This document shows, one piece after another, positions 1,821 through 62,987 of a DNA stretch of 63,816 nucleotides. The stretch covers positions 1-63,816 of the forward strand of contig JAPLYZ010000011.1 in assembly GCA_026395295.1 (NCBI GenBank), read 5' to 3'. A program made the translations under genes and the position numbers. The notes under the pieces are model-generated. The model did not search any database, had not been told where the DNA came from, and saw only the letters and a program-made list of their open reading frames with translations. How positions within the stretch are numbered: the stretch's first letter is position 1; every line of letters starts with the position of its first letter. Origin of the DNA: Candidatus Staskawiczbacteria bacterium (GTDB taxonomy: Bacteria > Patescibacteriota > Minisyncoccia > Minisyncoccales > Staskawiczbacteraceae).

Positions 1821-2187
1821 TTTCGTTTGCAAAAACAATTTTGAATTCAATGCCGTGGTTTTTAAAGCCGGCTTTTTCATACATTTTATGCACACCCTCT
1901 CTTTCGTGCCGGCTGTTGGCAATGAGTTTGTAGCAGCCGATTTTTTTTGCCTCGGAAACGACCATGTTTATCAACTCGGTGCCAATTCCCTGACCGCGAA
2001 GGCTTTCATCAACAAACAAATCTTCTAAAAATCCAAACGGCTCTTTATGCAAATCGTTTTTCATAATATATAGAAAAGCCCGGGCAACTTCTTTTTTGCC
2101 ACCTGCCTCGCCGTTAGGCGGGTCTTTCTCCACAAAAAACTTTATTCCCTCTGCCTCAACTATTTTTTTGTTTATCTCCGTTTCCAT
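1813..2187 (-). CDS. GNAT family N-acetyltransferase (carries an in-frame palindrome, PPNGEAG)
   Basis: LEDLFVDESLRGQGIGTEL acetyl-CoA motif A; MYEKAGF. Confidence 0.88.
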   Translation of the reverse strand: METEINKKIVEAEGIKFFVEKDPPNGEAGGKKEVARAFLYIMKNDLHKEPFGFLEDLFVDESLRGQGIGTELINMVVSEAKKIGCYKLIANSRHEREGVHKMYEKAGFKNHGIEFKIVFANENE

Positions 2188-2225
2188 GTCAAAATGTATG
2201 TTAAATGCTATTATGGTTTGTCTGA

Positions 2226-2819
2226 TTATTTATCAAATTTAATGCTTGATACGATTTTTTCTATAATTTGGTTATTGAAGCATGCTTGCTTCGGCCAACA
2301 CTCCCAGTCTAATCTGTATGCATTCTGTCCATGAATGAAAGTTATGTTTGTATGTTCTTGTCCTTGCTTGGTTATTTGTATAGATATATTGTTCGTAACA
2401 ATATTTTCTGTGGTAGTTGGGGTATTGGAATTATAAGAAACCTTGGGGACTGACTGATTGTCGGTTATTGACGCGCCATATTCTTTTGCCTCTTGGATAT
2501 TGTATATCGTCAAGCCAAAAAAAGATCCTAGTTTTACGAGATTAGATTGGAAATTTATTCTTTTTGGATAACCAATCATGTTTTCCTCTGTGACAAACCC
2601 AGTTGGGTAAATTATTTCAAGCCCAAGTTGCGAGTTATTGTAGGTGCTCCAATTATCAATAACAACATTTTCAGGTTTTGTAGTTTGCAAAGCGTTTGAT
2701 TTAAATATGTTTTTGATAATTAAGTATCCCGTAGGAAAATTTTTGACGATTAAATATCCCGAGAAAATAATTATAAAAACCAATATGACGATAAATATGG
2801 TAGTTAGTATCTTTTTCAT
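2226..2819 (-). CDS. Membrane-anchored hypothetical protein (PsbP-like extracellular domain)
   Basis: N-terminal TM helix; W-x-T-Y-x-N...YP and C-terminal IVSSIKF pattern. Confidence 0.6.
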   Translation of the reverse strand: MKKILTTIFIVILVFIIIFSGYLIVKNFPTGYLIIKNIFKSNALQTTKPENVVIDNWSTYNNSQLGLEIIYPTGFVTEENMIGYPKRINFQSNLVKLGSFFGLTIYNIQEAKEYGASITDNQSVPKVSYNSNTPTTTENIVTNNISIQITKQGQEHTNITFIHGQNAYRLDWECWPKQACFNNQIIEKIVSSIKFDK

Positions 2820-2953
2820 TTTTTAAATTTATGATTTTTAATCTATATTTGTTTTATTTTACATAAAAAATTGAAAAAAAGCAAATTCAAGAAAAAAAGA
2901 GGGCACCCTTTGAGAGAAGTGCCCATTGCTGTTCGAAGTTCGTCGAACCTGTT

Positions 2954-4303
2954 TTACTGACCTGTCCGTGTTTGGCTGATTCCATCTGGCCATAGCCCGG
3001 GGATCCTGAAACCGTTAAACCAATCTGCATCGGGGTAATCGGTATCAAGAATTCCGGAATTTGGTGTCCAGATAAAGAAGCCAAGCGGAGCAGGAGATAG
3101 CTGGTCGAATGTTTTTCCCGACCAGCCAGCTTCTTCGGTGAGCATGGTGGTGACTAATACCGATGATGGACTGACGTTTCCGAGCAAGCCGTCCACTTGG
3201 AAGTAGCGTGTTGTCCCAGCGGCAATCTCCAGAATTCTTCTCACCCCATCGACTTGCGGGTAAAATTCGGCCACACCGTTAGTTTCCGACGACGGAGAGA
3301 CAACCTGAGCCGGCGCGAGCAACCTGCCATCGGTAGATGACCTTATGGCAACCGAAACATTGCCTACGTCAGAACCAGCGAGCCTGAAGCTCAATTTCCC
3401 TATGCCAATGTCTCCTGACGGATCAGCCGAGATGGAAAACTTGAGCAATGTGTTTGGGGTATAGCTGATCAGGTGATTCGGGGAAATTGGTTCCCACATT
3501 ATGGCGGGATACGACTTTGCCAAAATCATGTTTTGACCCTTGGCACACCCGACAGCCGTGATTTGTTTGCCAGAATTTAATAGAACCCCCTGCGTTTGAG
3601 AAGCATCGGATACTATCGCGATGATGTCGCCAGATCTTCCCGACGAACAAGGACTAATGGGCGCAAAATCTGTCCTCACAATAATCTCTGTCGCTGAATT
3701 TGCCGGCAATGTAATTGGCGGAGACAAGAAGATTACAGCAGAGGTTTGGCCGTTCATGAAATAAGCTTCTCCAAGAAGCGATGATGAACTCCAGCTCCCG
3801 ACAGTCACGCGCACAATATCTTGTTGAACATTTGTAGCCGTTGAGCTTAGAGTTATTCCCAATTTTTGCAAACAGATCGACTCGTACAAAGAAGTCAATT
3901 TGAACACGACAGAAACTACGCCGGTTGACCCGCCGGTAACAAACCTCGACACAGGACTATTCGGGGCTAAAGACACAATCAACTCTGGCGTTAACTGTAG
4001 GAAGCGGTAAAACGCTTGATTCGCCCCCGAAGTTATTGGCAGGGTTACGTCGAACGTGTCAGAAGTGGCGGTTATGGGTTGCTGGTTGAGCACACGCCAG
4101 AGACCGAGAGTCAGTGTCCCTTCGGACGTTGACTCTTGAATCTGGTACAGCTCCCCAGCCTTCCCGTGGACCACAAATCTGGCCGTGCCATCGCCCTTCG
4201 GGTGGAACTCAATGCTCCCCGAATTGGTTTGGGCGAGCGTCGTTGTTGGCCAACATGCGGCAATGGCTGCTATTATCGTTGCTATCATTACTTTCATATT
4301 CAT
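2954..4303 (-). CDS. Secreted beta-rich hypothetical protein, compositionally atypical
   Basis: ATG at 4303 preceded by AGGAG; signal peptide ...TTLA-Q; visibly more GC-rich than neighbours; hairpin downstream near 2901-2925. Confidence 0.7.
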   Translation of the reverse strand: MNMKVMIATIIAAIAACWPTTTLAQTNSGSIEFHPKGDGTARFVVHGKAGELYQIQESTSEGTLTLGLWRVLNQQPITATSDTFDVTLPITSGANQAFYRFLQLTPELIVSLAPNSPVSRFVTGGSTGVVSVVFKLTSLYESICLQKLGITLSSTATNVQQDIVRVTVGSWSSSSLLGEAYFMNGQTSAVIFLSPPITLPANSATEIIVRTDFAPISPCSSGRSGDIIAIVSDASQTQGVLLNSGKQITAVGCAKGQNMILAKSYPAIMWEPISPNHLISYTPNTLLKFSISADPSGDIGIGKLSFRLAGSDVGNVSVAIRSSTDGRLLAPAQVVSPSSETNGVAEFYPQVDGVRRILEIAAGTTRYFQVDGLLGNVSPSSVLVTTMLTEEAGWSGKTFDQLSPAPLGFFIWTPNSGILDTDYPDADWFNGFRIPGLWPDGISQTRTGQ

Positions 4304-4532
4304 AATCTTCTCCTGTAACTTTCGTTCTATCGCAAACACATACGCCTTCCGCAAAGCGGAAAGCTGTCAAATATGCAGTTGTGAAAGAGCGAATGAGGTC
4401 TTGCCCCATATCGCATAATAATATCACCTTATTAGGGCGATGTCAAGGTTTTGAGTGTTCGTGACGTAGCAGTTGATAATCTTTTTGCCTTCCTTGAAAA
4501 ATATCAATTTTTAGATTAAGATGTAAAAATAT

Positions 4533-5996
4533 ATGATAATTCCAAAAGAGGTCAAAAATGTAATTGGAAAATTGGAACAGGCCGGATATGAAGCATATAT
4601 CGTAGGCGGATGCGTGCGCGATTTTTTATTAGGCATAGAGCCAAAGGATTGGGATGTTACAACAAATGCTAAACCCGAAGAAATCCAAAAAGTTTTTCCG
4701 GACAGTTTTTACGAAAATAATTTTTTGACTGTTACCGCGCGCACTGGAAGCAAAAAACCCGAGCTTGCCGAGATAGAAATTACAACTTACAGATTAGATG
4801 CAAAGTATTCTGACAAGCGCCATCCTGACGAGGTAAAATATGCAGAGAAGCTGGAAGATGATTTAAGTCGCAGAGATTTCACCGTCAACGCAATGGCCCT
4901 TCGACTCGGCTCAGGGCAAGCCAAAAAAGAAATTGTTGATTTGTTTGAAGGGCAGAAAGACTTGAAGAATAAAATAATCAGAACAGTTGGCAAGCCGGAA
5001 GAAAGATTTAATGAAGATGCTTTGCGAATGTTGAGAGCCGTAAGGTTTGCGACTACTTTAGGTTTTACAATTGAAGAAAAAACAGCAGAGGCAATTAAGA
5101 AAAACAGCGTTTGGTTGGAAGCAATTTCCAAAGAAAGAATAAGAGATGAATTTGTGAAAATAATTATGGCAGATAAAGCCGCCGAAGGAATTGAATTGTT
5201 GCGCGAGATGGGTTTGTTAAAATTTATTGTGCCTGAACTTTTGGAAAATTACGGCGTGGCGCAAAACAAGCATCATATATACGACTCTTACCAGCATCTG
5301 GTAAAGTCTTTGGAGTACGCCGCCAAAAAAAAATTTAATATGTATGTAAGGCTGGCGGCTTTGCTTCACGATGTTGCCAAAGCCAGAATTAAGGCAGGCA
5401 AAGATGAAGAGGCAACTTTTTACAATCATGAAATTGTGGGAGCAAAAATGACATTTCAAATTTTAAACCGTTTAAAATTTTCCAAAAAAGAAGTTGAGAA
5501 AATTACAAAGTTAGTCAGATACCATATGTTTTATTACAATGTTGACGAGGTAGGAGAATCATCTGTGCGACGATTGATAAAAAATGTTGGACCGGAAAAT
5601 ATAGAAGAGCTTTTGCAGGTGAGATTGGCAGATAGAATTGGTTCTGGCGTGCCAAAAGCCGAACCTTATAAACTAAGGCATTTTAAATATTTGGTTGATA
5701 AAGTTTCCAAAGACCCAATTTCTGCTAAGATGCTGAAGGTTGATGGTGCCGACATAATGAAAATTTTGGACATAAAGCCCGGGCCAAAAATTGGACAGAT
5801 TTTGGATGTTTTGTTGGGATATGTTTTAGATGAACCTAAAAAAAATACTAAGGAATTTTTAGAACAGGAAGTTGCAAAACTGGGTAAATTAGGCGATAAA
5901 GAATTAGAGATTTTGGCGGAAAAATCTAAAGAAGAAAAATTTGAAGTTGTCACAAAGCAGGACGAAATGACAAAACAAAAATATTGGGTAACATAA
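4533..5996 (+). CDS. cca: CCA-adding tRNA nucleotidyltransferase with HD domain
   Basis: VGGCVRD, DWDVTT, RRDFTVNA, EDALRMLRAVRF, ERIRDE, LLHDVAK. Confidence 0.92.
   Translation: MIIPKEVKNVIGKLEQAGYEAYIVGGCVRDFLLGIEPKDWDVTTNAKPEEIQKVFPDSFYENNFLTVTARTGSKKPELAEIEITTYRLDAKYSDKRHPDEVKYAEKLEDDLSRRDFTVNAMALRLGSGQAKKEIVDLFEGQKDLKNKIIRTVGKPEERFNEDALRMLRAVRFATTLGFTIEEKTAEAIKKNSVWLEAISKERIRDEFVKIIMADKAAEGIELLREMGLLKFIVPELLENYGVAQNKHHIYDSYQHLVKSLEYAAKKKFNMYVRLAALLHDVAKARIKAGKDEEATFYNHEIVGAKMTFQILNRLKFSKKEVEKITKLVRYHMFYYNVDEVGESSVRRLIKNVGPENIEELLQVRLADRIGSGVPKAEPYKLRHFKYLVDKVSKDPISAKMLKVDGADIMKILDIKPGPKIGQILDVLLGYVLDEPKKNTKEFLEQEVAKLGKLGDKELEILAEKSKEEKFEVVTKQDEMTKQKYWVT
4896..4920 (+). repeat. Family B palindrome, in-frame in cca (LRLGSGQ)
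   Basis: GCCCTTCGACTCGGCTCAGGGCAAG; matches copies at 16981, 25979, 56145 and 57016. Confidence 0.8.
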
Positions 5997-6153: not shown

Positions 6154-6227
6154 GGGCCTGTAGTAAAGTGGCATTACGCCTCGTTCGCAACGAGGAGGCG
6201 GCAGTCCGATTCTGCCCAGGTCCACCA
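6154..6227 (+). tRNA. tRNA-Ala(CGC)
   Basis: CCTCG TT CGC AA CGAGG; G3:U70 identity pair; encoded CCA; T-loop variant TCCGATT. Confidence 0.93.
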
Positions 6228-6373
6228 CTTCGCTCCTCACTTTGTTCGGAGCTACGCGGTGCGCGGCACGCGAAATATAATGAAGTGTGCCAAGCATATG
6301 AACTAAGCGAAGTGGTGCCCCGCGAAGCATGCCACGCGAAGCCTTGGCGTAGTGTGGTCTTGCGTAGTGGGGC
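6226..6373. repeat. Cluster of nested family A palindromes upstream of GIY-YIG
   Basis: CTTCGCTCC...GGAGCTACG; GCCCCGCGAAGC-[GCCACGCGAAGCCTTGGCGTAGTGTGGT]-GCGTAGTGGGGC; resembles the insert in dus at 56489. Confidence 0.75.
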
Positions 6374-6381
6374 CTACATTT

Positions 6382-6621
6382 ATGTTCTACGTATATATTT
6401 TGCAAAGTGAAAAAGATAAAAGCAGATATATTGGAGTTACTTCTGATTTGAAAAGGCGTATCAGCGAACATAATTCTGGAAATGCAAAATACTCTAGTTC
6501 AAAACGGCCGTATAGGCTGATTTGGTATTGTGCTTTTTTAGACAAAATAAAGGCATATGATTTTGAAAAATATTTGAAATCCAGCTCGGGATACGCATTC
6601 ACGAATAAGAGATTTTTATAA
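6382..6621 (+). CDS. Small stand-alone GIY-YIG nuclease (UPF0213/Slx1-like)
   Basis: MFYVYILQS...YIGVTSDLKRRISEHN...RPY...AYDFEKYLK; start at ATG 6382. Confidence 0.92.
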   Translation: MFYVYILQSEKDKSRYIGVTSDLKRRISEHNSGNAKYSSSKRPYRLIWYCAFLDKIKAYDFEKYLKSSSGYAFTNKRFL

Positions 6622-8441: not shown

Positions 8442-9287
8442 ATGGAAAAGCAAATTATAATAAAACTGCATAAAAATTTTGAAGATTGCGCTCGTAATAA
8501 AAATGGGGTTGAATTTTGGTACGCCCGTGAATTACAAGAATTATTGGGTTATGACAAGTGGAGTAATTTTGAAAATGTTATAAATAAAGCAAAAATAGCC
8601 TGTGAAAATGCCAAGCAAAATATCTCGGATCATTTTGCCGACGTCGGCAAAACGATACCTATGCCTAAAGGGGCAAACAAGGAAATACCCGATATTATGC
8701 TCACTCGATATGCTTGTTATCTGATTGCTCAAAACGGCGACCCGAGAAAAGATGAAATTGCTTTTGCTATGACCTATTTTGCCGTTCAGACAAGGAAGCA
8801 AGAAGTTGTAGAGCAGAGATTAGCTCAGTTGGAAAGGTTGCACGCAAGAGAGAAATTATCAATTTCTGAAAAGACTTTATCGGGAGTTTTGTTTGAAAGA
8901 GGAGTGGACAGCATGGGATTCGCAAGAATTAAAAGCAAAGGAGATCGAGCATTGTTTGGCGGTAAAACCACTCAAGACATGAAAAATAAACTTGGTGTCC
9001 CCGAATATCGCCCCTTGGCAGATTTTTTACCGAGCGTAACCATAAAAGCAAAAGATTTGGCAAATGAAATCACTAGTTTCAATGTGAAGAAGAATTCTTC
9101 CTTGAATAATGAAGCTCCGATCGCTGGTGAACACGTGAAAAATAACCAAAATGTCCGCGAAGTGCTTGTTAAAAGTGGTATTCGCCCCGAAGCATTACCG
9201 GCGGAGGAAGATATAAAAAAGATTGAGAGGAAATTGAAATCCGAAGACAAAAAATTACCCAAAAATGTTAAAAAATTAAAAAGTTAA
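8442..9287 (+). CDS. dinD: DNA damage-inducible protein D
   Basis: [48 protein letters not shown]. Confidence 0.92.
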
Positions 9288-9349: not shown

Positions 9350-11287
9350 ATGCCAGGAGAAAAAAATGGGAAAAAACAAAAAGGGATTGTTTATCCGGAG
9401 GTAAAACTCAAAGATGTTTTGAGGGCGTTTTGGAACGGGATTAGACCCAAAAAATTGTTATTTTTTATTATATTGGCGTCCATGATTTCTGTGAACGTGG
9501 TTGCTATTATTATGCCAATTTTTTATAAACAATTTTTTGACATTATTTCAGGGTACCCGCTTGAGGGTCACGGGAATAGTGCAATTATTGCCCAGCAGCT
9601 TTTCAAAATAATTCTTTATGTTTTAGGGCTTAATATGTTGTCTTGGGTCCTTTACAGAATAGCCACATTGGCAAACAACGTTTACGAACCAAGGGTTATG
9701 GCAAATTTGAAACAGCAGTCTTATGACCACTTAATGTCGCATTCGTATTCCTTTTTTGTTAACAATTTTGCAGGGTCACTGGTGCAAAGAGTCAACAGGT
9801 TCGCCAGAGCGTTCGAGAGAATGACAGACAACTTGGTTTGGAATTTGCTTCCTTTAGCGGTACGAGTTGTTTCCATTTTGGTTGTTGTTTTTGTTATTAA
9901 CAAATGGATTGCGTTGGTTATTTTCATTTGGACGCTTATTTTTATATTGTTTAATGTCACTTTTTCGAAATGGAAGTTGAAATACGATATTAAAGCCGCT
10001 GCGATGGATTCTGTCGCCACCGGATACTTGTCTGACACAATAGCAAACCAAAACAATATACAACTTTTTAATGGTTTTAATTTTGAATCTCAAGGTTATA
10101 AAAAGGTTACGAATGAACAGGCAAACGTAACAGTATTTGCATGGAATTTAGATGCGGTGGTGGAAGCAGGGCAGTCGTTTTTAACCATTGCGATAGAATT
10201 TGCTTTATTCTTTTTTTCAATTAAATATTGGGAACAAGGGCTGATAACAATTGGAGTATTTGTTTTGTTACAAGCATATATAATAAATATCATAAACCAG
10301 TTGTGGGGGTTCACAAGGTTAGTGCGAGACACATACCAAAGTTATGCCGATTCAAAAGAAATGGTGGAAATTTTGCTTTTGTCTCACGAAATTAAAGACG
10401 CGCCCGGCGCCAAAGAATTGGTTTTTAAAAAAGGTGAAATTGAATTTAAAAATTTAGGATTTAGCTTCAACTCCACGAGAAGCGTTTTAGAGGATATAAA
10501 TTTAATAATAAAGCCCGGAGAGAAAGTGGCGCTGGTGGGCCCGTCCGGGGCTGGTAAAACAACTTTTGTAAGATTGCTTCTAAGACTGTATTCTGCCACA
10601 GCGGGAAAAATTTTAATTGATGGGCAAGACATTTCAAGCGCAACGCAGGAAAGTTTGAGAAAAAATATTTCCATGGTGCCCCAGGACCCCATTTTGTTTC
10701 ACAGAACTTTGGCTGAAAACATAGCTTATGGGAAGATAAATAATGAACCCGCCTCTGCACAAGGCTACGGCGAGGCGAAGAAACAGATAGAAAACGCTGC
10801 AACCTTGGCGCACTGCGACGATTTTATAAAAGACCTGCCATATGGTTTTGAAACCTATGTTGGAGAAAGAGGGATAAAATTATCAGGCGGAGAGCGCCAG
10901 CGCGTGGCAATTGCCAGAGCGATTCTGAAAAATGCCCCGATTTTAATTTTAGATGAAGCGACATCAAGCTTGGACTCTAATTCTGAAATGCTTATTCAGG
11001 ATGCTTTGAATAATTTAATGCAGAGCAAAACCGTCATCGTAATCGCTCACCGGCTGTCAACAATTCAAAAAATGGACAGAATTATTGTCATTGATAATGG
11101 AAAAATTATTGAGCAAGGAAGCCACAAAGATTTATTGGAAAACGGAAGCGGTTTGTATAAAAAACTTTGGGAGTTACAAGCAGGTGGATTTTTGAAAGAA
11201 GAGGACGACGAACTTCCGGCATCGCCCGAAGAAATACCGGGCGTTGAAGATGAGGAAGAAGCCGAAGGGAAGTTCGCTAATTTTTAA
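9350..11287 (+). CDS. ABC exporter, fused permease/ATP-binding
   Basis: Six TM segments, GPSGAGKT, LSGGERQR, ILDEATS, IAHRLST; two in-frame palindromic inserts. Confidence 0.92.
   Translation: MPGEKNGKKQKGIVYPEVKLKDVLRAFWNGIRPKKLLFFIILASMISVNVVAIIMPIFYKQFFDIISGYPLEGHGNSAIIAQQLFKIILYVLGLNMLSWVLYRIATLANNVYEPRVMANLKQQSYDHLMSHSYSFFVNNFAGSLVQRVNRFARAFERMTDNLVWNLLPLAVRVVSILVVVFVINKWIALVIFIWTLIFILFNVTFSKWKLKYDIKAAAMDSVATGYLSDTIANQNNIQLFNGFNFESQGYKKVTNEQANVTVFAWNLDAVVEAGQSFLTIAIEFALFFFSIKYWEQGLITIGVFVLLQAYIINIINQLWGFTRLVRDTYQSYADSKEMVEILLLSHEIKDAPGAKELVFKKGEIEFKNLGFSFNSTRSVLEDINLIIKPGEKVALVGPSGAGKTTFVRLLLRLYSATAGKILIDGQDISSATQESLRKNISMVPQDPILFHRTLAENIAYGKINNEPASAQGYGEAKKQIENAATLAHCDDFIKDLPYGFETYVGERGIKLSGGERQRVAIARAILKNAPILILDEATSSLDSNSEMLIQDALNNLMQSKTVIVIAHRLSTIQKMDRIIVIDNGKIIEQGSHKDLLENGSGLYKKLWELQAGGFLKEEDDELPASPEEIPGVEDEEEAEGKFANF
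10748..10780 (+). repeat. Family A palindrome, in-frame in the ABC ATPase domain (PASAQGYGEAK)
   Basis: CCCGCCTCTGCACAAGGCTACGGCGAGGCGAAG. Confidence 0.8.
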
Positions 11288-51297: not shown

Positions 51298-51318
51298 AAC
51301 TTATCCACAGGTTGATGC

Positions 51319-51351
51319 TTGTGCGGGGGGGGGGTATTAGTGTGATATAAT
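51319..51351 (+). promoter_or_regulatory. Promoter with a G10 tract upstream of an extended -10
   Basis: TTGTGC-G10-TATTAGTG-TGA-TATAAT, ending 6 nt before the ATG. Confidence 0.55.
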
Positions 51352-51357
51352 AAATTA

Positions 51358-53295: not shown

Positions 53296-53362
53296 AAAGC
53301 TGAGGGTAAAAATGGGTTCTAGGTCTGGACAAGGGTGCTTGTTGATGATAAAATAGAGCAAT

Positions 53363-53782
53363 ATGGATAACAATAAAGAACTAGCCAACATAAACGATAA
53401 GTTGATAGATTTAGAGTTAGCCAAAAGCGACAATAAGAACTCAAAAGTCAGGAAATACCTGCCGGCAGTAGTGCTGGTGGCTTCATTCTATTATTCCTTT
53501 CTTTTGGCTCTGGGATTAGCTCTGGGGTATATCGGCGCTAAAATTTTCTCTAAATATTTGCTTGAAAACGGCAAAGTTGACTGCATTTACATTGACTGCG
53601 GTAAATACAAAATTCACTTACACCACTGGATTTTGGGGGCGTTGTTGTTATTGGCTGTATGGGTTATTGACTATTTCTATCTTCCAAGATTTTTCGTCGG
53701 GGTTGTTGCCGGTGTCATTGCTCACGACATTTACGACTTTAACGATTGGCACAAAATTTTAGTAAAAAACGAGACAAAATAA
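53363..53782 (+). CDS. Membrane hypothetical protein
   Basis: Hydrophobic; HLHHW motif. Confidence 0.65.
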   Translation: MDNNKELANINDKLIDLELAKSDNKNSKVRKYLPAVVLVASFYYSFLLALGLALGYIGAKIFSKYLLENGKVDCIYIDCGKYKIHLHHWILGALLLLAVWVIDYFYLPRFFVGVVAGVIAHDIYDFNDWHKILVKNETK

Positions 53783-53856
53783 AGTTGTTGAAAATTAGAG
53801 CACAATGCGGCGAAAGCCGCATTTTAATTTATGGAATTATGTGATATGATGGAAGT

Positions 53857-54897: not shown

Positions 54898-54966
54898 TGG
54901 CATTCCACCGCTCTCGAAAAGCGGCGCCCAGCAATGGGCTTGTGAGTTCAAGTCTCACCTCCTCCG
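54883..54966 (+). tRNA. tRNA-Ser(CGA)
   Basis: GGAGGAG/CTCCTCC acceptor, CCGCT CT CGA AA AGCGG, long variable arm, G73. Confidence 0.95.
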
Positions 54967-54982
54967 CTTAAAAAATAAAAAT

Positions 54983-55681
54983 ATGTCATGGTTAAATAAA
55001 CTCATAGCACTTACCTACAATCCTAAATTCAGGATGCCCTTTTTCTTGTCGCCATTTTTAGGGATGATTTTTGGTGATATTGGAACAATTATCATGATTA
55101 AAATGGGTTTCCCCAACCCCAAGTTTGCAATCCCTGTTTTTATTGCAATAGGTTATTTCATTCTCTGGATAATAATTATGTACGTGCGTCTTTACAACTA
55201 CATTGGAGAAGACGGAAAATTGCAGAAAAAAACTTTCGTTAAAAACACCCAAGTTTATGATAGGTTCAGACAAGAAGCCAGAAAATATGATTGGATGGTG
55301 AAGGAAATCCCAAAAGTACCTCTATTAATGGATTATGGATTCACGATAAAGGGGGTCGAGCAGGGAGTTGCTTTTGAAATAGCAATGATAGATAATTTTT
55401 CAAATGCTGGAGGATTTAGTGAAAGAGCTGTTTATATTAAAACAAAAAAAGGAGAAAATTTTGAAATATCGCCAGCCAATGCTGTTAAGAATCAATTTGT
55501 TGAGGCGAATAGGGAAGACCTCAATTATTTGATGAGAAATAATAAATATATTACAAAAATAAGTTTCTATAAGGGACAAATGGCAGCATTAATTTTTGAT
55601 TATATAGGCATGTCTTCAAATGTAAAAGAGGTAGTATCTAGGCTTATACAAATATCGAAGAGTTACGACGGGCTTTATTAA
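54983..55681 (+). CDS. Membrane hypothetical protein
   Basis: Two N-terminal TM helices; 232-aa ORF. Confidence 0.6.
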   Translation: MSWLNKLIALTYNPKFRMPFFLSPFLGMIFGDIGTIIMIKMGFPNPKFAIPVFIAIGYFILWIIIMYVRLYNYIGEDGKLQKKTFVKNTQVYDRFRQEARKYDWMVKEIPKVPLLMDYGFTIKGVEQGVAFEIAMIDNFSNAGGFSERAVYIKTKKGENFEISPANAVKNQFVEANREDLNYLMRNNKYITKISFYKGQMAALIFDYIGMSSNVKEVVSRLIQISKSYDGLY

Positions 55682-55750
55682 AATTTTTTTTAATCTTTAA
55701 ATTTTAGGTGGCGTTGGTTTGAGCAAATCGACGCTTTTTTTGGGAAAATT

Positions 55751-56758
55751 ATGGAATTAGGATTCTGGAGAAAACTTAAAAAGCCGATTATGGCTTTGGC
55801 TCCCATGTCCGGGGTAACTGATGAGGCTTTTCGCCTCATGCTTTTGAAATACGGCAGGCCAGATGTTTTTTGGACGGAATTTGTTTCGGCTGAAGGATTA
55901 TTTTCCAAAGGCAGAGATCATTGCTTGAAGCTTTTAAATTTTAACAAAAAAGAGCGCCCCATTGTTGCTCAGTTGTTCGGCGCCAAACCTTCTGACTTTG
56001 AAAAGGCTGCAAGGCTTGTGGCAGAACTTGGTTTTGATGGTGTTGATATAAACATGGGTTGCCCGGACAGAAACATAGAAAAAAAGGGCGGAGGCGCGGC
56101 ATTGATTAAAGATTCCCATTTGGCAAAAGAAATTATCAAAGCAACCCTTCGAGGCGCTCGGGGCGGGCAAAAAAAGATTCCTGTTTCAGTAAAAACGCGT
56201 GTTGGGTACAAAAAGAACCAGATTGACAAATGGATTCCTGCGCTTTTGGAAGAAGACATTGCTGTTTTAACTGTTCATTTTCGCACCAGAAACGAAACAT
56301 ATGCTTCTTCTGCTCGGTGGGAGTTAGCTAAAGAGGTTGTCAGCTTAAGAAATAAATATGCCCCTAAAACATTAATTTTAGGTAACGGCGATGTAAAATC
56401 TCTTGCAGATGCCCGAGAACTGGTTAAAAAATCCGGGGTTGACGGCGTTATGGTTGGCAGAGCTGTTTTGCAGAACCCTTGGTTCTTTGCCCCGCGAAGC
56501 CTTAGCGAAGTGGGGTTTACTAAATTGCCCACTATTCAAGAGAGATTAAAAGCCATTATTAAACACGCTGAAATTTTCGACAAAATTCATAAGGACAGCC
56601 AGCGGAAGAACGGCAGTTATAAGCAGTTTGACGCCATGAAAAAATATTTTCATTCTTACGCAAAAGGTTTTACTGGCGCAAAAGAGCTTAGGGAAAAACT
56701 CATGAAAGTAAAAAATACGGAAGAAACAAAAATGGTCGTAAAAGATTTTTTAAAGTAA
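55751..56758 (+). CDS. dus: tRNA-dihydrouridine synthase
   Basis: LAPMSGVTD, DINMGCP, VSVKTR, GNGDV, GVMVGR; two in-frame inserts. Confidence 0.93.
   Translation: MELGFWRKLKKPIMALAPMSGVTDEAFRLMLLKYGRPDVFWTEFVSAEGLFSKGRDHCLKLLNFNKKERPIVAQLFGAKPSDFEKAARLVAELGFDGVDINMGCPDRNIEKKGGGAALIKDSHLAKEIIKATLRGARGGQKKIPVSVKTRVGYKKNQIDKWIPALLEEDIAVLTVHFRTRNETYASSARWELAKEVVSLRNKYAPKTLILGNGDVKSLADARELVKKSGVDGVMVGRAVLQNPWFFAPRSLSEVGFTKLPTIQERLKAIIKHAEIFDKIHKDSQRKNGSYKQFDAMKKYFHSYAKGFTGAKELREKLMKVKNTEETKMVVKDFLK
56145..56164 (+). repeat. Family B palindrome, in-frame in dus (LRGARG)
   Basis: CCCTTCGAGGCGCTCGGGGC. Confidence 0.6.
56489..56515 (+). repeat. Family A palindrome (opposite orientation), in-frame in dus (PRSLSEVG)
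   Basis: GCCCCGCGAAGCCTTAGCGAAGTGGGG. Confidence 0.8.
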
Positions 56759-56762
56759 AAAT

Positions 56763-57824
56763 ATGATTTTTAATAAAAACTATTTTTATCTGCTGGCTGT
56801 GGTCGTGATTATTTTTGTTGCAGCTCCTTTTGTGGGTTCAGCTTCAACCGAGAAGATATTCTATATGTCGCAATTGAGGGAAAAAGAAGGCATTGCAAGT
56901 TTTAAAAAGAACGCGGACAAAATTGATATTTTAGCTCCTCAGTTCTACACCGTTTCCGCCAAGCTAAAATTAACCGGCTCGCTTGATGCTAACTTGAAAA
57001 AAGTGATAGCGCAAACCCTTCGGGACCCAAAGGGTACCCCTCAGGGCAAGAAATTAAAAGTTATGCCCTTGGTAATAAACGCCGGTTTTAAGCAAGATAT
57101 AATTCACAACTTGTTGCTTTCTGGCCCTGCGCAAGACGCGGTTATAAAGTCCCTTGTTGATGTCGCGAAAAAAGAAAAATATATCGGCTGGCAATTTGAT
57201 TTTGAAAACATAGGTTATTTAGACAAAGACCTATACTCGGCTTTTGTTGAGAAATCCGCAGAGGCTTTGCATAAAAATAATCTGATTATGAGTGTGGCAG
57301 CTGTTTCGCGAAGTGTTGATTATGAAGATACCGACGCTTTCAAAAATTGGGGTGGAGTGTTTGATTACGCAAGACTGGCTAATGCTGTAGATTTTGTGAG
57401 TTTAATGACTTATGACGACCCTAATTCAGTGGGACCCGTGGCGTCTTTACCATTTATAAACAGTGTTTTAGACTATGTGAAGGGTAAAATTCCACCGGAG
57501 AAACTATCTTTTGGAATTCCCCTTTATTATTGGGGTTGGAGCATTGACCCTTTGAAAAAAATAACAGTAAGCGGAACATATGAAAGAATTTTCAATATAA
57601 GATCTAATTTTCGTCATAGTTTGGGTTTTGACGAGGCTTTAGGAGCGTCTTGGCTTACTTACGTCTACCAAAATAAACAATATAAAATTTGGTATCAAAA
57701 TAAACAGAGTTTTGAGAATAAATTAGATATAGTGAAAAATAATAATTTTAGAGGTTTTTCAGCATGGGTTTTAGGTGTTGAAGACCCTGGGATTTGGGTT
57801 GCTCTTTCGGACTTTAAAAAATAG
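56763..57824 (+). CDS. Glycoside hydrolase family 18 protein
   Basis: GWQFDFE, LMTYD, GIPLY, WVLGVED; signal peptide. Confidence 0.85.
   Translation: MIFNKNYFYLLAVVVIIFVAAPFVGSASTEKIFYMSQLREKEGIASFKKNADKIDILAPQFYTVSAKLKLTGSLDANLKKVIAQTLRDPKGTPQGKKLKVMPLVINAGFKQDIIHNLLLSGPAQDAVIKSLVDVAKKEKYIGWQFDFENIGYLDKDLYSAFVEKSAEALHKNNLIMSVAAVSRSVDYEDTDAFKNWGGVFDYARLANAVDFVSLMTYDDPNSVGPVASLPFINSVLDYVKGKIPPEKLSFGIPLYYWGWSIDPLKKITVSGTYERIFNIRSNFRHSLGFDEALGASWLTYVYQNKQYKIWYQNKQSFENKLDIVKNNNFRGFSAWVLGVEDPGIWVALSDFKK
57016..57050 (+). repeat. Family B palindrome with nested GACCC/GGGTACCCC unit, in-frame (LRDPKGTPQGK)
   Basis: CCCTTCGG-GACCCAAAGGGTACCCC-TCAGGGCAAG. Confidence 0.8.
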
Positions 57825-57870
57825 AACTATACATTGCAGTTTAGTCAATTTTGAGGTAATATAAATAATT

Positions 57871-58347
57871 ATGGATATCGCCATTATTTTTTTGATTACG
57901 GCAGGAATTATTATTATAGCCTTGGTTGCGATAAATGCTTTTTTGCTTTGGAAAGCCCGTCAAACAAATGAGAAGATAGACAACTTGTTAGAAAAAGGGA
58001 AAATTAAAGATTTTAAAGATATTTTTTTGTCGCAAAAGGAAAAGATTGGTGATTTGGAGGAAAAAATTAGGGAAGCATTTTTGAAGATTAAAAATTTGGA
58101 AGATATTTCGGAGACAACCATAAGAAGAGTAGGTGTTGTCAGGTTCAATCCATTTAATAACATGGGCGGGAATCAGAGCTTTGTTATAGCTTTATTAGAC
58201 AATAAAAATAACGGATTTGTGATTTCGAGCCTATTTGTCAAAGAGGGGAACAGGGTTTACGCCAAAGTAATAAAGGGCGGTAAATCAGATCATGTTTTAT
58301 CGGGAGAGGAAGTTGAAGCAGTAAGCCGAGCTACCAGCTCGAAGTGA
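57871..58347 (+). CDS. DUF4446 family protein
   Basis: VVRFNPF..GGNQSF.IALLD...RVYAK...LSGEE. Confidence 0.85.
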   Translation: MDIAIIFLITAGIIIIALVAINAFLLWKARQTNEKIDNLLEKGKIKDFKDIFLSQKEKIGDLEEKIREAFLKIKNLEDISETTIRRVGVVRFNPFNNMGGNQSFVIALLDNKNNGFVISSLFVKEGNRVYAKVIKGGKSDHVLSGEEVEAVSRATSSK

Positions 58348-58360
58348 TTTGTGAATTTTT

Positions 58361-59911
58361 ATGGTAAAAAAACAACAAAAAAATAAAGAGATTTTGCAAG
58401 CGCGACCGCCGGTGGTAGTTGTTTTGGGGCACGTTGACCATGGCAAAAGTTCTCTTTTAGAGGCCATTAGAGATTTTAGAATAACTTCAAAAGAATCTGG
58501 TGGAATAACCCAGCACATTGGAGCTTATGAAATTGTTATGGATGGCAACCCGCCTTCGCCAGAGGCTTCGGCGAGGCAAAGGAAGATTACCTTTATTGAC
58601 ACTCCCGGGCACGAAGCATTTTCCGCAATGCGCGCCAGGGGAGCTGAGGTTGCTGATATTGCTTTGTTGGTTGTAGATTCGGCCCAATCGGTTCAGCCAC
58701 AAACAAAGGAAGCTGTCATGGCCATAAAAAGAGCGGAAATTCCGATGATTGTTGTGCTTAACAAAATTGACTTGCCGACAGCCAATCCCGGAAAAATAAA
58801 AGGCGAGCTTTCCAAAATAGATGTTTTGGTGGAATCTTTTGGCGGGACAATACCATCGGTTGAAGTCTCGGCTAAAGAAAAAACAGGAATTGATGAATTG
58901 CTGGAAGTTATATTATTGGTTGCTGATTTGCAAGAATTAAAGGCAGAGGTAGATGCGCCTGCAGAGGGCTTAATAATCGAGTCGTACATGGATGGTTCAA
59001 AGGGGCCGGTTGCGACTGCAATCATTAAAAAAGGTGTTTTGAGGGATAAGGATATTATTGCCACGGATTTAGCCATGGCTAAAGTAAAACACTTGGAAGA
59101 CTTTCAAGGCAAAGTGATTGAAGAGGCTTATCCTTCTCAGCCGGTTATTATTTTAGGATTTGAAAAAGTGCCGGCAGTAGGAGAAAAATTTAAGAGCTAC
59201 AAAACCGCAGAGGAGGCGATGGCAAAAATAAAAACAGAACAGCCCAAGAGAGAAATTGCTTCCGCTGTTTTAGACACAGACCCGAACAAAAAAGTTTTAA
59301 ATATGATTTTGAAAGGAGATGTTTTCGGATCGCTGGAGGCGATTGATGGAATGCTGAAAAATTTACCCCAGGATAAAGCCATTTTACGAATTTTGAAATC
59401 TGAGGTTGGAGAAATAAACGAAACAGACGCCAAGCTGGCGGAGATGTCTAAGGCTATAATAATAGGATTTCGCGTCAAAATTAGCCCATTGGTGGCGCAA
59501 TTTATGAAGAATGATTTAGATAGAAGGCTGAGGATAAAAACTTTTGATATAATTTACGAATTAATACAAGATGTGCGACGAAGTTTGGAAAAAACATTGG
59601 AAGCGGAAACAGTTAGAACCGACGTTGGAAAACTTAAAACACTGTTGGTTTTTTGGGGAGAAAAAAACAGGCAAATTGTTGGAGGGAAAATCACCGAGGG
59701 CGAGTTGAAAAAAGGACTCAAGTTGGAGGTTTTTCGTGAAGACAGAAAAGTGGGAGCCGGGAGGATTATTAACCTTCAGCGCGATAAAAAAGACATAGAC
59801 AAGCTTAGCAAGGGAGATGAAGCAGGCATACTTTTTGAAGGCAATATGAAAATTGAAAAAGGAGATATTTTAGTGGCTTACATAGAAGAACGAAAGAAGG
59901 GCGAGTTGTAA
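58361..59911 (+). CDS. infB: Translation initiation factor IF-2 (short form)
   Basis: RPPVVVVLGHVDHGKS, GGITQHIGAY, DTPGHEAF, NKID. Confidence 0.96.
   Translation: MVKKQQKNKEILQARPPVVVVLGHVDHGKSSLLEAIRDFRITSKESGGITQHIGAYEIVMDGNPPSPEASARQRKITFIDTPGHEAFSAMRARGAEVADIALLVVDSAQSVQPQTKEAVMAIKRAEIPMIVVLNKIDLPTANPGKIKGELSKIDVLVESFGGTIPSVEVSAKEKTGIDELLEVILLVADLQELKAEVDAPAEGLIIESYMDGSKGPVATAIIKKGVLRDKDIIATDLAMAKVKHLEDFQGKVIEEAYPSQPVIILGFEKVPAVGEKFKSYKTAEEAMAKIKTEQPKREIASAVLDTDPNKKVLNMILKGDVFGSLEAIDGMLKNLPQDKAILRILKSEVGEINETDAKLAEMSKAIIIGFRVKISPLVAQFMKNDLDRRLRIKTFDIIYELIQDVRRSLEKTLEAETVRTDVGKLKTLLVFWGEKNRQIVGGKITEGELKKGLKLEVFREDRKVGAGRIINLQRDKKDIDKLSKGDEAGILFEGNMKIEKGDILVAYIEERKKGEL
58549..58582 (+). 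repeat. Family A palindrome, in-frame in the IF-2 G domain (PPSPEASARQR)
   Basis: CCCGCCTTCGCCAGAGGCTTCGGCGAGGCAAAGG. Confidence 0.85.
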
Positions 59912-59953
59912 TTTTCAAATAAAAAGCCTCGCGTGGTAATCGCGGGGTTTTGC

Positions 59954-60106
59954 TCACCGTTTATCAGCGAAACATGACATGAAAAGACATATCGCGGCGC
60001 TGATAATACAGTAAGTGAAGCGGAGCAGAGTGTCGCCGGAAAGAAGGTCTATTATTCCGCCGGCGAGAAGCAGGAGTCCAATGATCTTAAAAATCTTTCG
60101 CGCCAT
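59954..60106 (-). CDS. Small two-helix membrane protein
   Basis: MARKIFKIIGLLLL..., AAAGGTGG Shine-Dalgarno upstream. Confidence 0.5.
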   Translation of the reverse strand: MARKIFKIIGLLLLAGGIIDLLSGDTLLRFTYCIISAAICLFMSCFADKR

Positions 60107-60196
60107 GGTATGCCCACCTTTCTGTAGTTTGCTCATTTTGCTTCCACAAAGTGAATTGTAAAAGGAGCTACTGATATATTATCAAATAAAGAAATA

Positions 60197-60553
60197 ATGT
60201 CAAATAGAATTGATAAAATAAATTCTTTGTTAGAACACGAAATAGGGAAAATAATTTCCAGGGATTTTGCTTTTTCCCCAGAAATTTTGGTCACCTTAAC
60301 GCGTGTTGCAACAACGTCCAACCTAATTGAAGCAAAAGTTTACATTTCTGTTTTCCCTGAAGAAAAGTTAGCAGGAATTATTAATGCCCTGCAAAAGTCG
60401 GTTTATGATATCCAATACAAAATTAACAGAACATTACGCCAGCGCCCAATACCCAAAATAAAATTCGTTAAAGAGACAGAAATTAGCAGAGCCGCGAAAA
60501 TTGAAGAATTGTTGGTTAAAGCAAGAGAAAGCGACCAGAAAGTTGAAAAATAG
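60197..60553 (+). CDS. rbfA: Ribosome-binding factor A
   Basis: RIDKINSLL, AKVYISV, RPIPKIKF; follows infB. Confidence 0.9.
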   Translation: MSNRIDKINSLLEHEIGKIISRDFAFSPEILVTLTRVATTSNLIEAKVYISVFPEEKLAGIINALQKSVYDIQYKINRTLRQRPIPKIKFVKETEISRAAKIEELLVKARESDQKVEK

Positions 60554-60619
60554 GAAAAAATAAAGTAAATTAGAAGAAGGTGGCACCCCGCTTAGCGGGG
60601 TAATAGCCATGATAAGCAT

Positions 60620-60694
60620 GGCACGGTAGCCAAGCAGTAAGGCAGGGGTCTGCAAAACCCCTATACGTGGGTGCAATTCCCGCCCGTGCCTCCA
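60620..60694 (+). tRNA. tRNA-Cys(GCA)
   Basis: GGGGT CT GCA AA ACCCC; U73 followed by CCA. Confidence 0.95.
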
Positions 60695-60695
60695 T

Positions 60696-60779
60696 GCCCT
60701 GGTGGTGGAATGGTATACACGCAACACTTAAAATGTTGTGAGGCTTGTCCTCATGCGGGTTCGACTCCCGCCCTGGGCA
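60696..60779 (+). tRNA. tRNA-Leu(TAA)
   Basis: CAACA CT TAA AA TGTTG; long variable arm. Confidence 0.95.
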
Positions 60780-60781
60780 CT

Positions 60782-60823
60782 AAAAACAAAAAGCTCTGCT
60801 TTTATGCAGAGCTTTTTGTTTTT
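60782..60823. terminator. Bidirectional intrinsic terminator
   Basis: AAAAACAAAAAGCTCTGC-ttttat-GCAGAGCTTTTTGTTTTT. Confidence 0.8.
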
Positions 60824-60827
60824 AGTG

Positions 60828-61268
60828 CTAGCTTTCTAAAACTTCTATGTCAACTATTTTAGCCCCAAAGTTTACTGCCGACTCTCTGTCGGGCATCCAG
60901 ATGTCCACGTGGTAATTTCCTTTCTTTTTGTTCATTCTGTCTTCAACAACGAAAACCTTGTCTCCATATAAATCTGGTATCCTAACCTCGGTACCGAAAG
61001 GTAACATATTGTTGGCGATTATGCCGTCTTCTACGCATTTCCCAGACGCGGTGACAAATGGGCTATCGTCTGTTTGGTCAAGGGTGCTGGAATAAGCAGT
61101 AATAACAACTTTAACCGTTTTAACAACCTTAGGAATGTCCATGTATGGAGCATTAACTGCGCCGGGGAAGTCAGCATCGGTTGTTTGGGGCATAAATAGG
61201 GCCGACAAGCAGATACAGGTCATTATGCCTATTAAAATAACTTTAAATGTATTCATAATGTTTATCAT
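60828..61268 (-). CDS. 3D-domain (cell-wall) protein
   Basis: TAYSS..QTDDSP..TASG, LPFGT, VEDR, VDIW. Confidence 0.85.
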   Translation of the reverse strand: MINIMNTFKVILIGIMTCICLSALFMPQTTDADFPGAVNAPYMDIPKVVKTVKVVITAYSSTLDQTDDSPFVTASGKCVEDGIIANNMLPFGTEVRIPDLYGDKVFVVEDRMNKKKGNYHVDIWMPDRESAVNFGAKIVDIEVLES

Positions 61269-61374
61269 TTACAAAAAACTCCCTTTCGGAAGTATGCATA
61301 TATGTTAGCATAATTTATTATCCGTGTCAATAGTTTTGAAGCAAAAAAAGCCCACCTTTTAGGTGGGCGATTTG

Positions 61375-61446
61375 AGCGGGTGAGCAGAATCGAACTGCCG
61401 TCTTAACCTTGGCAAGGTTACATAATAGCCACTATACGACACCCGC
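61375..61446 (-). tRNA. tRNA-Gly(GCC)
   Basis: TAACC TT GCC AA GGTTA; GCGGGTG/CACCCGC. Confidence 0.95.
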
Positions 61447-61451
61447 TTACG

Positions 61452-61528
61452 TGGTGCCTGGAGCCAGACTTGCACTGGCCACCCCAGCTTTTTCAGAGCT
61501 GTGCTCTAACTACCTGAGCTATCCAGGC
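61452..61528 (-). tRNA. tRNA-Phe(GAA)
   Basis: CAGCT CT GAA AA AGCTG; encoded CCA. Confidence 0.95.
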
Positions 61529-61538
61529 GTAAATTTTG

Positions 61539-61611
61539 TGGACGCTGCAGGACTCGAACCTGCGACCCTCTCAGTGTAAATGAGATGCTCTACCAACTGA
61601 GCTAAGCGTCC
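61539..61611 (-). tRNA. tRNA-Val(TAC)
   Basis: TCTCA TT TAC AC TGAGA. Confidence 0.95.
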
Positions 61612-61633
61612 ATTGGGTGACGAAAAAGACCTT

Positions 61634-61699
61634 TGTGCGCGGGACAGGAGTCGTCCAGTCATCCGACTGGACGACTCCTGTCGTATGACTGGACGAACC
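61634..61699 (-). repeat. tRNA-3'-end echo with double hairpin in the T-loop, copy 4
   Basis: GGTT CG tccagtc-atac-gacagga GT CG tccagtc-ggat-gactgga CG ACTCCTGTCCCGCGCACA. Confidence 0.85.
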
Positions 61700-61704
61700 G
61701 CGTG

Positions 61705-61786
61705 TGCTCTCGGTGGGACTCGAACCCACAAGCTGTGAAGCATACGCACCTCAAGCGTACGTGTATACCAGTTCCACCACGAGAGC
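61705..61786 (-). tRNA. tRNA-Leu(GAG)
   Basis: TACGC TT GAG GT GCGTA; long variable arm. Confidence 0.95.
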
Positions 61787-61792
61787 GTGCCT

Positions 61793-62215
61793 CTATTTTT
61801 TTTCTTCGGCCACTTTCTTTTCTATTGGCGCCACTTCGGCCACTGGTTCTTCAGGAGCAATAGCAACCGCAAAGTCCTTTTTCTTTAACCTTGATTTTTT
61901 CCCTTTGGCAGTTCTCAAATAGTAAAGTTTTGATCTCCTAACTTTTCCATGCCTGACAACTTCTATTTTATCTATTGATGGCGAGTGAATAGGGAAGACT
62001 CTTTCAACTCCAATTCCATCAACAACCTTTCTTACGGTTATTGTTGCCGGAATGCCCTCGCCGTGTTTTTTGGCGATAATTATTCCTTCAAAAATTTGGA
62101 TTCTGTCTTTTTCTCCCTCTTTTATTTTTTGGTGCACCTTAATTGTGTCACCGGGTCTTAATTCGGGATTTTTTTTCTCTTGTTCTTTATTAAATTTTTC
62201 TAAAAGTGTAATCAT
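61793..62215 (-). CDS. rplS: 50S ribosomal protein L19
   Basis: [33 protein letters not shown]. Confidence 0.97.
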
Positions 62216-62216
62216 A

Positions 62217-62987
62217 TTATTTTTGTTCTAAATTTTTAATAATTTTGTTTAAATCGTCCGGTAGTTCTGACTTAAGCTCCTTAACTTCTCCGCCCGGCAA
62301 CTGGATTTTTAGATATGCCGAGTGTAAAAATTGCCTTGTCAACCCTTCCGGAATTTTAGAATTTTTAAAACTGTACATTTTATCTCCCGCAACAGGATGT
62401 CCTAAATAAGAAAAATGACACCGTATTTGGTGGCGTCTGCCTGTTTTAATTTGGACTTCGAGCAAGGTGTAGTCTTTGTATCGTTCCAAGACCCTGTACT
62501 CTGTGATTGCCTCTCTGGCTGATTTGGGGGCATTTATTGCAGAATATGCTCTTTGCTTTCTTGGGTCTCCTTTTGCTCTGGCTATAAGCGTTTCAATTGT
62601 TCCTGTATCTTCTTTGATATTTCCTTCAACTAATGCAATATACCTCTTTTCTATAGTTTTTTCAAGTCCCTCTCTATTCTTCTTGTCCGCCAGAGCCTTG
62701 GCGCCGGCGGAAAACTGTTTTTGCAAAAAAATCAAGGCCTCATTAGTTTTTGCCACCAACAAGACCCCGGAAGTGTCTTTATCCAGTCTGTGAACAATTC
62801 CATATCTTGGTGGCTCCCCGACGCCTGTAAGCTTGGGGTGTTCCTCTACAAGCCAATCTATCAGTGTTTTTCTTTGGCTCGCCGTAGCCTCGGAGGAGGC
62901 GGGTCCTTCCTCAAACACCACAACTCCTGTCGGCTTATCAACAACCAAAACATTTCCGTCCTCATAAATAATTTTCAGTTGAGCCAT
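62217..62987 (-). CDS. rluD: RluA/RluD family pseudouridine synthase
   Basis: [30 protein letters not shown]; two in-frame inserts. Confidence 0.88.
62682..62711 (-). repeat. Family A palindrome, in-frame in rluD ([10 protein letters not shown])
   Basis: Reverse complement TCCGCCGGCGCCAAGGCTCTGGCGGACAAG. Confidence 0.75.
62872..62903 (-). repeat. Family A palindrome, in-frame in rluD ([10 protein letters not shown])
   Basis: Reverse complement CCCGCCTCCTCCGAGGCTACGGCGAGCCAAAG. Confidence 0.8.

Follow-up and report, generated by a model that had tools for sequence, protein, structure and literature searches.

Short palindromes lying in frame within genes and hairpins paired with a nuclease have both been described before. 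Among the Rickettsia palindromic elements (RPE), RPE-1 measures approximately 150 bp (PMC10969869), and for the repetitive extragenic palindromic (REP) sequences Di Nocera et al. list uvrABC, tRNA synthetase and pseudouridine synthase genes as intragenic hosts, and state that the origin and spread of the transposase-less CGTC repeats are open (PMC3733652). The GIY-YIG nuclease SsnA acts on single-stranded DNA (ssDNA) only and on one strand, cutting just upstream of its repeat beside a flanking hairpin; its binding depends most on the C that directly follows the palindrome, and its catalytic residues are Y6, Y17 and E64 (PMC11893778). The NTS repeats of this system are 2% genic, and the Ssn-NTS linkage rate is 71% (Chenal et al. 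2025, PMC11893778). Here we describe Family A, a hairpin of 30 or 33 nucleotides (nt) found in a 63,816-nt stretch (hereafter the window; contig C14, JAPLYZ010000011.1) of the 0.90-Mb genome of a Candidatus Staskawiczbacteria bacterium (G000; 40% GC, 97.6% complete), together with a clade of small nucleases to which it is linked. At a rough probability of 0.55, we consider Family A to be a REP-like in-frame hairpin that is recognised as ssDNA and spread by a clade of GIY-YIG nucleases represented in the window by a 79-amino-acid (aa) protein.

The Family A unit and its insertion into genes

The architecture of the unit was read from 126 distinct copies picked by core sequence alone (82 with a four-nt loop and 44 others). 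From left to right, it consists of a 6-nt outer stem (mostly CCCGCC), 3 unpaired nt (mostly TYC), GC, the loop, GC, 3 further unpaired nt (TWC) and the complementary stem, bordered by a variable or A-rich 5' flank and by a C-R-A-R tail at the 3' side, in which the C directly after the palindrome is conserved. The subtype with a 4-nt loop is 30 nt long, and the one with a 5-nt loop, which has a bulge in its right arm, 33 nt; the inner stem has 2 bp and the internal loop (3x3) is mostly unpaired. The first inner-stem pair covaries (G-C in 30, T-A in 24 and C-G in 15 of the 82 four-loop copies) and the outermost stem pair occurs in four Watson-Crick types. These compensatory pairs show that Family A is a palindromic unit kept at the DNA level, as was originally proposed from the occurrence of copies in several frames and on both strands. 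Neither GTAG nor CGTC was present at either stem end in the 126 copies, and there was no general target-site duplication, since identity between left and right flanks was not in excess (82 and 44 copies); such a duplication, hinted at by tRNA-end and CCC sites, was thereby ruled out as a general feature, the 3-nt flanking repeat being confined to some sites of these two kinds. A host origin of the outermost stem base was likewise set aside, as most clean filled/empty pairs, judged by eye, better fit a base borne by the element. The two congeners compared (G003 and G005, with ~755 kb of each aligned to G000) are only ~78% identical at the DNA level and thus too distant for a fine reading of target preference.

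Copies were located by two position-weight matrices, trained on the genome's own copies and applied with a score cut-off of at least 20. They returned 36 matches genome-wide (19 and 17 by matrix), as against 0-1 per matrix in five codon-block shuffles of the genome. One match, in dinD (9179-9208), coincides with a conserved protein motif whose orthologue has the same length, and was dropped as chance; 30 of the remaining 35 copies (~85%) are genic. The same matrices detect 22 and 26 copies in G003 and G005, which were outside the training set, and a strict pattern is present in 19 of the 26 genomes of the genus (reversed-pattern control: 0) and in 67 of 301 genomes of the phylum (control at or near zero). 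At ~35 copies per 0.9 Mb, the description of the repeat as high-copy is not borne out. Besides the genes of the window, the hosts include RecA, UvrA, UvrC, DnaK, GrpE, YchF, TatD and ribosomal proteins, named by reading their sequences; the host names within the window are best NCBIfam matches, with curated cut-offs passed by nusA and initiation factor 2 (IF-2) only.

The clearest evidence for insertion comes from orthologous sites that are filled in one genome and empty in another. In IF-2 (infB), a 33-nt unit (58549-58581, plus strand) adds 11 aa to a turn of the G domain, where 18 of the 23 loci of the genus (the other 5 being filled) and 60 of 78 parsed metagenome homologues have a short turn, as the original prediction had it. 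RluD carries two 30-nt units on the minus strand: the one at site 2 (62682-62711), after the catalytic motif, contributes +10 aa, with a separate +5 aa nearby, and, of the 18 orthologues that were aligned from 25 loci, 15 have nothing at this position; the one at site 1 (62874-62903), after motif I, lies in a length-variable loop (net +4 to +7 aa) and has Family A counterparts in 2 of the 18. The rluD orthologues L040, L044, L046, L047, L048, L051, L052 and L055 also hold unrelated short inserts, many of them palindrome-like, in at least four further RluD loops. The unit of the ABC ATPase gene (10748-10780, plus strand, 33 nt, sense, phase 0; net +10 aa) faces empty sites at 11 of 13 parsed loci (4 of 17 unparsed) and a decayed copy in one congener; that of dus (56486-56515, minus strand, 30 nt, antisense to the gene; net +9 aa) is missing from 7 of 9 parsed loci (5 of 14 unparsed) and shared by one congener. 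In the GNAT acetyltransferase gene, a 21-nt relative consisting of the outer stem only (2102-2122, minus strand; net +8 aa) corresponds to empty sites at 5 of 7 genus loci and to a different 18-nt hairpin, at the same position, in one congener.

In many of the DNA alignments among G000, G003 and G005, the difference consists of one gap of 30 or 33 nt. Among tightly anchored sites preselected for a net gain of at least 8 aa (n=18), 16 gain 9 to 11 aa, and 15 of the 24 anchored G000 sites exceed one or both of two comparators by 7 aa or more, the others being shared, decayed or in variable loops. That the unit is an insertion is close to certain, and clean, frame-preserving cases measure 30 or 33 nt. 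For IF-2, RluD, the ABC ATPase, dus and GNAT this bears out the claim of in-frame insertion in multiples of 3 nt, as empty sites exist and the peptides do not recur in orthologues lacking the palindrome. The claim does not extend cleanly to pbpC and nusA: the 30-nt unit of PbpC (46713-46742, minus strand), which is degenerate and lies in the C-terminal domain, pairs poorly, scores 16 (the other seven of the eight long window copies score 32-53) and goes with differences of +4, +4 and +7 aa from three distant orthologues, and the two units of NusA (19250-19279, 30 nt, score 32; 19325-19357, 33 nt, score 44; both plus strand) lie in an acidic, low-complexity and unalignable C-terminal tail, which contains the unit at varying positions in 9 of 23 genus members.

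Insertion into conserved genes is preferred, as had been surmised: G003 or G005 has an orthologue for 27 of the 30 hosts, compared with 56% of coding residues. Copies in several frames and on both strands do occur, but unevenly, for one frame dominates and, of 67 genic copies across the three genomes (one G005 match in a doubtful open reading frame excluded), 60 are sense and 7 antisense. With the leading strand taken from the local gene-strand majority (7 genic sites undetermined), the sense bias appears both in co-oriented (41:6) and in head-on genes (12:1); orientation follows transcription and not the replichore, and lagging-strand (IS200-like) targeting was rejected because head-on genes are sense-biased too. 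Each frame is usually open (53-82 of 84), and 45 copies occupy the sense frame that encodes no arginine, with none in the two most arginine-rich frames; we take this frame bias to reflect selection on the peptide, which may explain part of the strand bias.

At the protein level, predicted models of IF-2 and RluD place three of the sites in low-confidence loops, which may be the surface loops expected at the outset. In the IF-2 G-domain model (mean predicted local distance difference test, pLDDT, 83; 63 sequences) the insert forms a coil between strands 39-45 and 59-65; in that of RluD (pLDDT 77; 18 sequences) the two inserts lie in the only segments with pLDDT below 50 (residues 28-36 at site 1 and 94-108 at site 2). 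A contig from an RNA library covers rluD without any difference and retains both inserts, which argues against their removal from RNA, with carry-over of DNA being possible.

A clade of GIY-YIG nucleases beside the hairpin

All nine sites named by the original prediction are present, with small shifts of coordinates; it missed two copies that stand beside a nuclease gene. There, tRNA-Ala(CGC) (6154-6227, plus strand) overlaps with its 3' end the left arm of a forward unit with an enlarged loop of 17 nt (6223-6269, plus strand), a layout kept at homologous loci; an AT-rich spacer follows, and then an inverted unit (6314-6372, minus strand) with a second one (6328-6357) nested in its loop, ending 9 nt before the ATG of a stand-alone GIY-YIG gene (6382-6621, plus strand). 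The encoded protein of 79 aa retains Y5, Y16, R26, H30 and E62 (Pfam PF01541, E=3e-18), and its nearest solved structures are those of UPF0213 (1zg2 and 1ywl). It is one of 10 GIY-YIG matches in the genome, most of which are small stand-alone genes adjoining tRNAs or palindromes.

The linkage was assessed in 113 GIY-YIG genes with upstream sequence, collected with the window nuclease as query (FastTree, 82 columns). A C-terminal motif is common to 66 of these, which group on a single branch (SH-like support 98) with members from Patescibacteria, Bacteroidota, Alphaproteobacteria and Kiritimatiellota. Within 300 nt upstream, 43 of the 66 clade genes and none of the other 47 have a scored Family A hairpin, its arms trained on copies away from the nuclease; downstream, the hairpin accompanies 6 of 65 clade genes and 1 of 46 others. 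The linkage of the clade sits at 3' ends of tRNA and transfer-messenger RNA (tmRNA) genes; tRNA proximity was rejected as its cause, as none of 29 tRNA-adjacent genes of other clades carries the hairpin. A specific GIY-YIG clade is thus linked to Family A, which goes beyond the original prediction, where no mobilising partner had been named, and we consider it probable that this clade recognises the hairpin.

The cassette occupies tRNA-Ala(CGC) in G000, G014 and G017, and is missing there in G003 and G005. The 3' part of this tRNA (window 6154-6227) differs markedly between genomes with and without the cassette, which suggests that the 3' sequence arrived together with it. Other tRNA ends also form hairpin arms: the left arm of Family A is the 5' end of tRNA-Gly (antisense strand) near position 110011 of G003:C8 and near 208400 of G005:C1, and the 3' end of tRNA-Ser(TGA) in G005; no nuclease of the clade was found in either of these two genomes. 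In G000 further small GIY-YIG genes (C9:13277, C10:12248, C11:75131 and C15:19789) start within a few bases of the 3' end of a tRNA or follow a duplicated piece of one, and some of the genome's other GIY-YIG genes at tRNA ends carry a hairpin type of their own.

Spread of the unit and competing explanations

Sites once filled appear to be reused. In the IF-2 turn, G000 has the 33-nt form and G003 the 30-nt one; that of G007 holds a short hairpin of a different kind, and those of G006 and G010 hold compound palindromes. In an IF-2 tree built without the insert region, the filled G003 stands beside the empty G005 and G024 (support 100/99) and the filled G010 beside the empty G011 (98/96); the alleles of G000, G003 and G007 have altered flanking codons in common, absent from empty alleles, and are rejected as a clade (approximately unbiased test, p-AU 1.6e-5), a group that was named after the alignment and tree had been inspected. 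Different hairpin families at one site recur in GNAT, UvrC, TatD and others, and hairpins are nested at 6314-6372 of the window and in rluD of G010. The genome encodes ComEC, DprA and a ComM-like ATPase, and natural competence has been reported for Saccharibacteria. We infer from the alleles that filled sites spread by short-patch transfer between species, followed by exchange of the hairpin.

If Family A is spread by the 79-aa nuclease clade, the nuclease would nick ssDNA at the hairpin, as SsnA does at NTS, and host repair or recombination would join the released unit bluntly into single-stranded stretches, for which the transcribed sense strand or incoming transforming DNA are candidates. 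Selection would then keep frame-preserving, arginine-poor inserts in tolerant loops, and filled alleles would later move between species as short patches in which the hairpin may be exchanged. A fuller version is possible, and we advance it tentatively: minimal GIY-YIG nucleases of a second clade, lodged at the 3' ends of tRNAs in groups ranging from Patescibacteria to Bacteroidota, might mobilise a transposase-free hairpin of 30 or 33 nt by blunt insertion into the transcribed strand of essential genes. Loops filled in this way would afterwards pass from one species to another and act as landing sites, in which hairpins that belong to different nuclease clades nest or take each other's place.

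A number of points weigh against mobilisation by the nuclease. GIY-YIG enzymes cut DNA and are not known to rejoin it. No scored hairpin accompanies 23 of the 66 clade genes, and the linkage sample was drawn with the window nuclease as query and includes kin, which are not independent. In G003 and G005, for all their 22 and 26 copies, no member of the nuclease clade was found; G017, conversely, encodes one but has just a single strict-pattern copy. Both hairpins lie upstream of the gene with none flanking its other side, so that the cassette is unlike an excisable two-ended element. The strand bias could be explained wholly by selection on the peptide. Finally, present-day activity of the repeat is not borne out: within a subtype, copies differ on average at 9-10 positions, with one identical pair among 291, and no clean empty allele was seen over 44000-63816 in four sequencing runs, of which contigs were used, so that polymorphism could escape. 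At the infB unit, the joints seen in the runs had other letters and stemmed from relatives, and a metagenome scan, with 76-81% identity at best, gave no close strain.

Among the alternatives, the one that survives best is spread by host recombination only (transformation and ectopic gene conversion), with the nuclease serving another purpose, such as ssDNA restriction like that of SsnA or control of its own expression. It would account for the short flanks shared by non-sister IF-2 alleles, for the different hairpins at one site in several genes and for a copy number that does not track the nuclease, and it agrees with the competence genes and with the account of SsnA, which lowers transformation and is not shown there to transpose (PMC11893778). 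We nonetheless regard it as unlikely, since blunt 30/33-nt insertions at many unrelated sites, without flank homology to a donor, need a first insertion step beyond homologous recombination.

That Family A consists of ordinary REP-type repeats, moved by a transiently visiting RAYT/IS200-like HUH transposase, is improbable. In size, in the imperfection of the palindrome, in nesting and inverted doublets and in having no target duplication, it does resemble REP/REPIN (PMC3733652, PMC3116915), but the GTAG or CGTC tag is missing, orientation follows transcription, and the tight linkage is to the GIY-YIG clade instead. Moreover, no Y1 transposase (PF01797: 0) was found in G000 (97.6% complete), other genomes not having been searched for a Family A-flanked Y1. 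No IS110 or IS4-type DDE transposase was found in G000 either, which speaks for the nuclease as partner.

We give little credence to an RNA route, in which units transcribed in tRNA trailers or mRNA would be reinserted by a reverse transcriptase. The 60:7 sense bias, the first window unit (co-oriented with the tRNA and overlapping its 3' end) and the rluD RNA contig with both units would fit it; against it stand the lack of a reverse transcriptase in the same near-complete genome, the lack of any pattern of poly(A), target duplication or 5' truncation, and the mostly unremarkable RNA folding of single copies (8 strands, z -0.5 to -2.5).

That selection keeps the inserts because they are useful to the host, be it as structural elements of mRNA or as peptide tags in housekeeping proteins, is highly improbable: the enrichment in conserved genes and the inserts common to several congeners speak for it, and the patchy presence among sister species, the use of several frames and strands, the interchangeability of hairpin families at one site and the position of inserts in low-confidence model loops speak against it. 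An independent origin of each hairpin, whether through template switching at the site or as a chance product of loop codons rich in GC, might apply to the dinD match and the weak pbpC copy, but has virtually negligible probability in view of the excess of matches over shuffles and of unpaired internal-loop bases and a tail conserved across genomes and phyla, and is largely refuted for copies with clean empty orthologues.

Other repeats of the window and comparison with described systems

The window contains several further repeats. Right behind intact tRNAs lie fragments resembling tRNA 3' halves (633-703, 30760-30826 and 61632-61700 on the minus strand; 35556-35614 on the plus strand), each with a double hairpin in place of the T-loop, and together they make up a second family of repeats. 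In run X9, one contig of an RNA library lacks 30 nt at 61650, perhaps because the hairpin was skipped when complementary DNA (cDNA) was made, or else through real processing. A different short hairpin family, with 28 pattern matches genome-wide, is found in frame in the genes for tRNA nucleotidyltransferase (4898-4915) and trigger factor (25980-25996). Two intergenic copies of a structured repeat of ~110 nt (17942-18049 and 28313-28428) are identical over 63 nt and differ in the central hairpin, and a 113-nt repeat with a long perfect palindrome (21717-21829 and 22498-22610; 88% alike) flanks a NUDIX-like open reading frame of 186 aa, named from a reading of its sequence; the 18-mer palindrome at the core of this repeat has 14 strand matches genome-wide. 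Positions 21941-21980 match 30579-30618 in inverted orientation. A gene for a bacterial alpha-2-macroglobulin of 2155 aa is located near pbpC (within 37292-48725), the two being a usual pairing; the pbpC C-terminal region occurs in 20 of 201 genomes of the order, and alpha-2-macroglobulin/pbpC was found in few of them. An SBBP beta-propeller repeat protein with internal repeats of 177-186 nt is encoded at 51358-53295.

As these observations show, streamlined genomes of Patescibacteria carry dozens of foreign loops of 10-11 residues in IF-2, RecA, UvrA, DnaK and other proteins, and the insert sites provide a natural map of insertion-tolerant positions as well as a reason for caution in alignments and phylogenies.

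The analogy with Rickettsia palindromic elements, drawn in the original prediction, stands: like these and the intragenic REPs, Family A consists of palindromes dispersed in frame, with empty orthologues, in unrelated conserved genes of a small genome, and the host classes listed for REPs are met with here as well. The unit, at 30 or 33 nt, is unlike RPE-1 in length, and the short RPE families, of which RPE-4 and RPE-6 are CGTC-tagged (PMC3733652), were compared by tag only. Unlike the GTAG/CGTC REPs, Family A is untagged and has a 3x3 internal loop, and unlike REPs, which are mainly extragenic, it is mostly genic (30/35), with a candidate partner enzyme identified. Overlap with one of the minor families of PMC3733652 is possible. 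With REPIN/RAYT (PMC3116915) it has in common inverted doublets, nesting, blunt insertion and a dedicated single-gene partner; it differs in that the partner is a GIY-YIG and not a Y1 HUH enzyme, and that the genic unit is a singlet situated mostly inside genes. Miniature inverted-repeat transposable elements (MITE) have terminal inverted repeats and a target-site duplication, unlike Family A with its lack of a general one. The small dispersed repeats of cyanobacteria (Elhai et al. 2008) are reportedly very short, mobile and in part in frame within genes, and are not known to have a nuclease partner; on this description they resemble Family A.

The closest parallel is Ssn (cd10448) with NTS/SRM, where likewise a small single-domain GIY-YIG gene lies by its own hairpin; linkage is 65% here and 71% there, the Tyr/Tyr/Glu catalytic set recurs (Y5/Y16/E62 in our protein and Y6/Y17/E64 in SsnA), the hairpin is directional with a C after the palindrome, and the host has competence genes. 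Unlike in Ssn/NTS, the hairpin is of another sequence and lies upstream only, at tRNA/tmRNA 3' ends, and Family A is ~85% genic compared with 2% for NTS. The genome also encodes a small GIY-YIG protein (G000:C8:26053-26277) whose gene is flanked by two inverted NTS-type repeats (17 NTS pattern matches genome-wide) and which, from this sequence context, is probably the Ssn of this genome; as it falls outside the 66-gene branch, the clade of the window nuclease is separate from it, and the genome would carry a probable Ssn plus a separate Family A system. Our literature search, with subscription journals mostly outside it, returned no paper on this hairpin family, its nuclease clade or their pairing. 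Palindromes in frame within genes are known already from RPE and intragenic REPs, as are pairs of a hairpin and a nuclease from Ssn; Family A and this clade would make a new pairing, as far as the literature found goes. With this clade the site-specific ssDNA nucleases may gain a new specificity, and because one hairpin family is tied to one nuclease clade, the question left open for transposase-less repeats becomes testable with a 79-aa protein and 30-nt oligonucleotides. If mobilisation by the GIY-YIG nuclease is true, the hairpin would be the smallest kind of selfish element, and in-frame repeats of the RPE type would have their missing mechanism.

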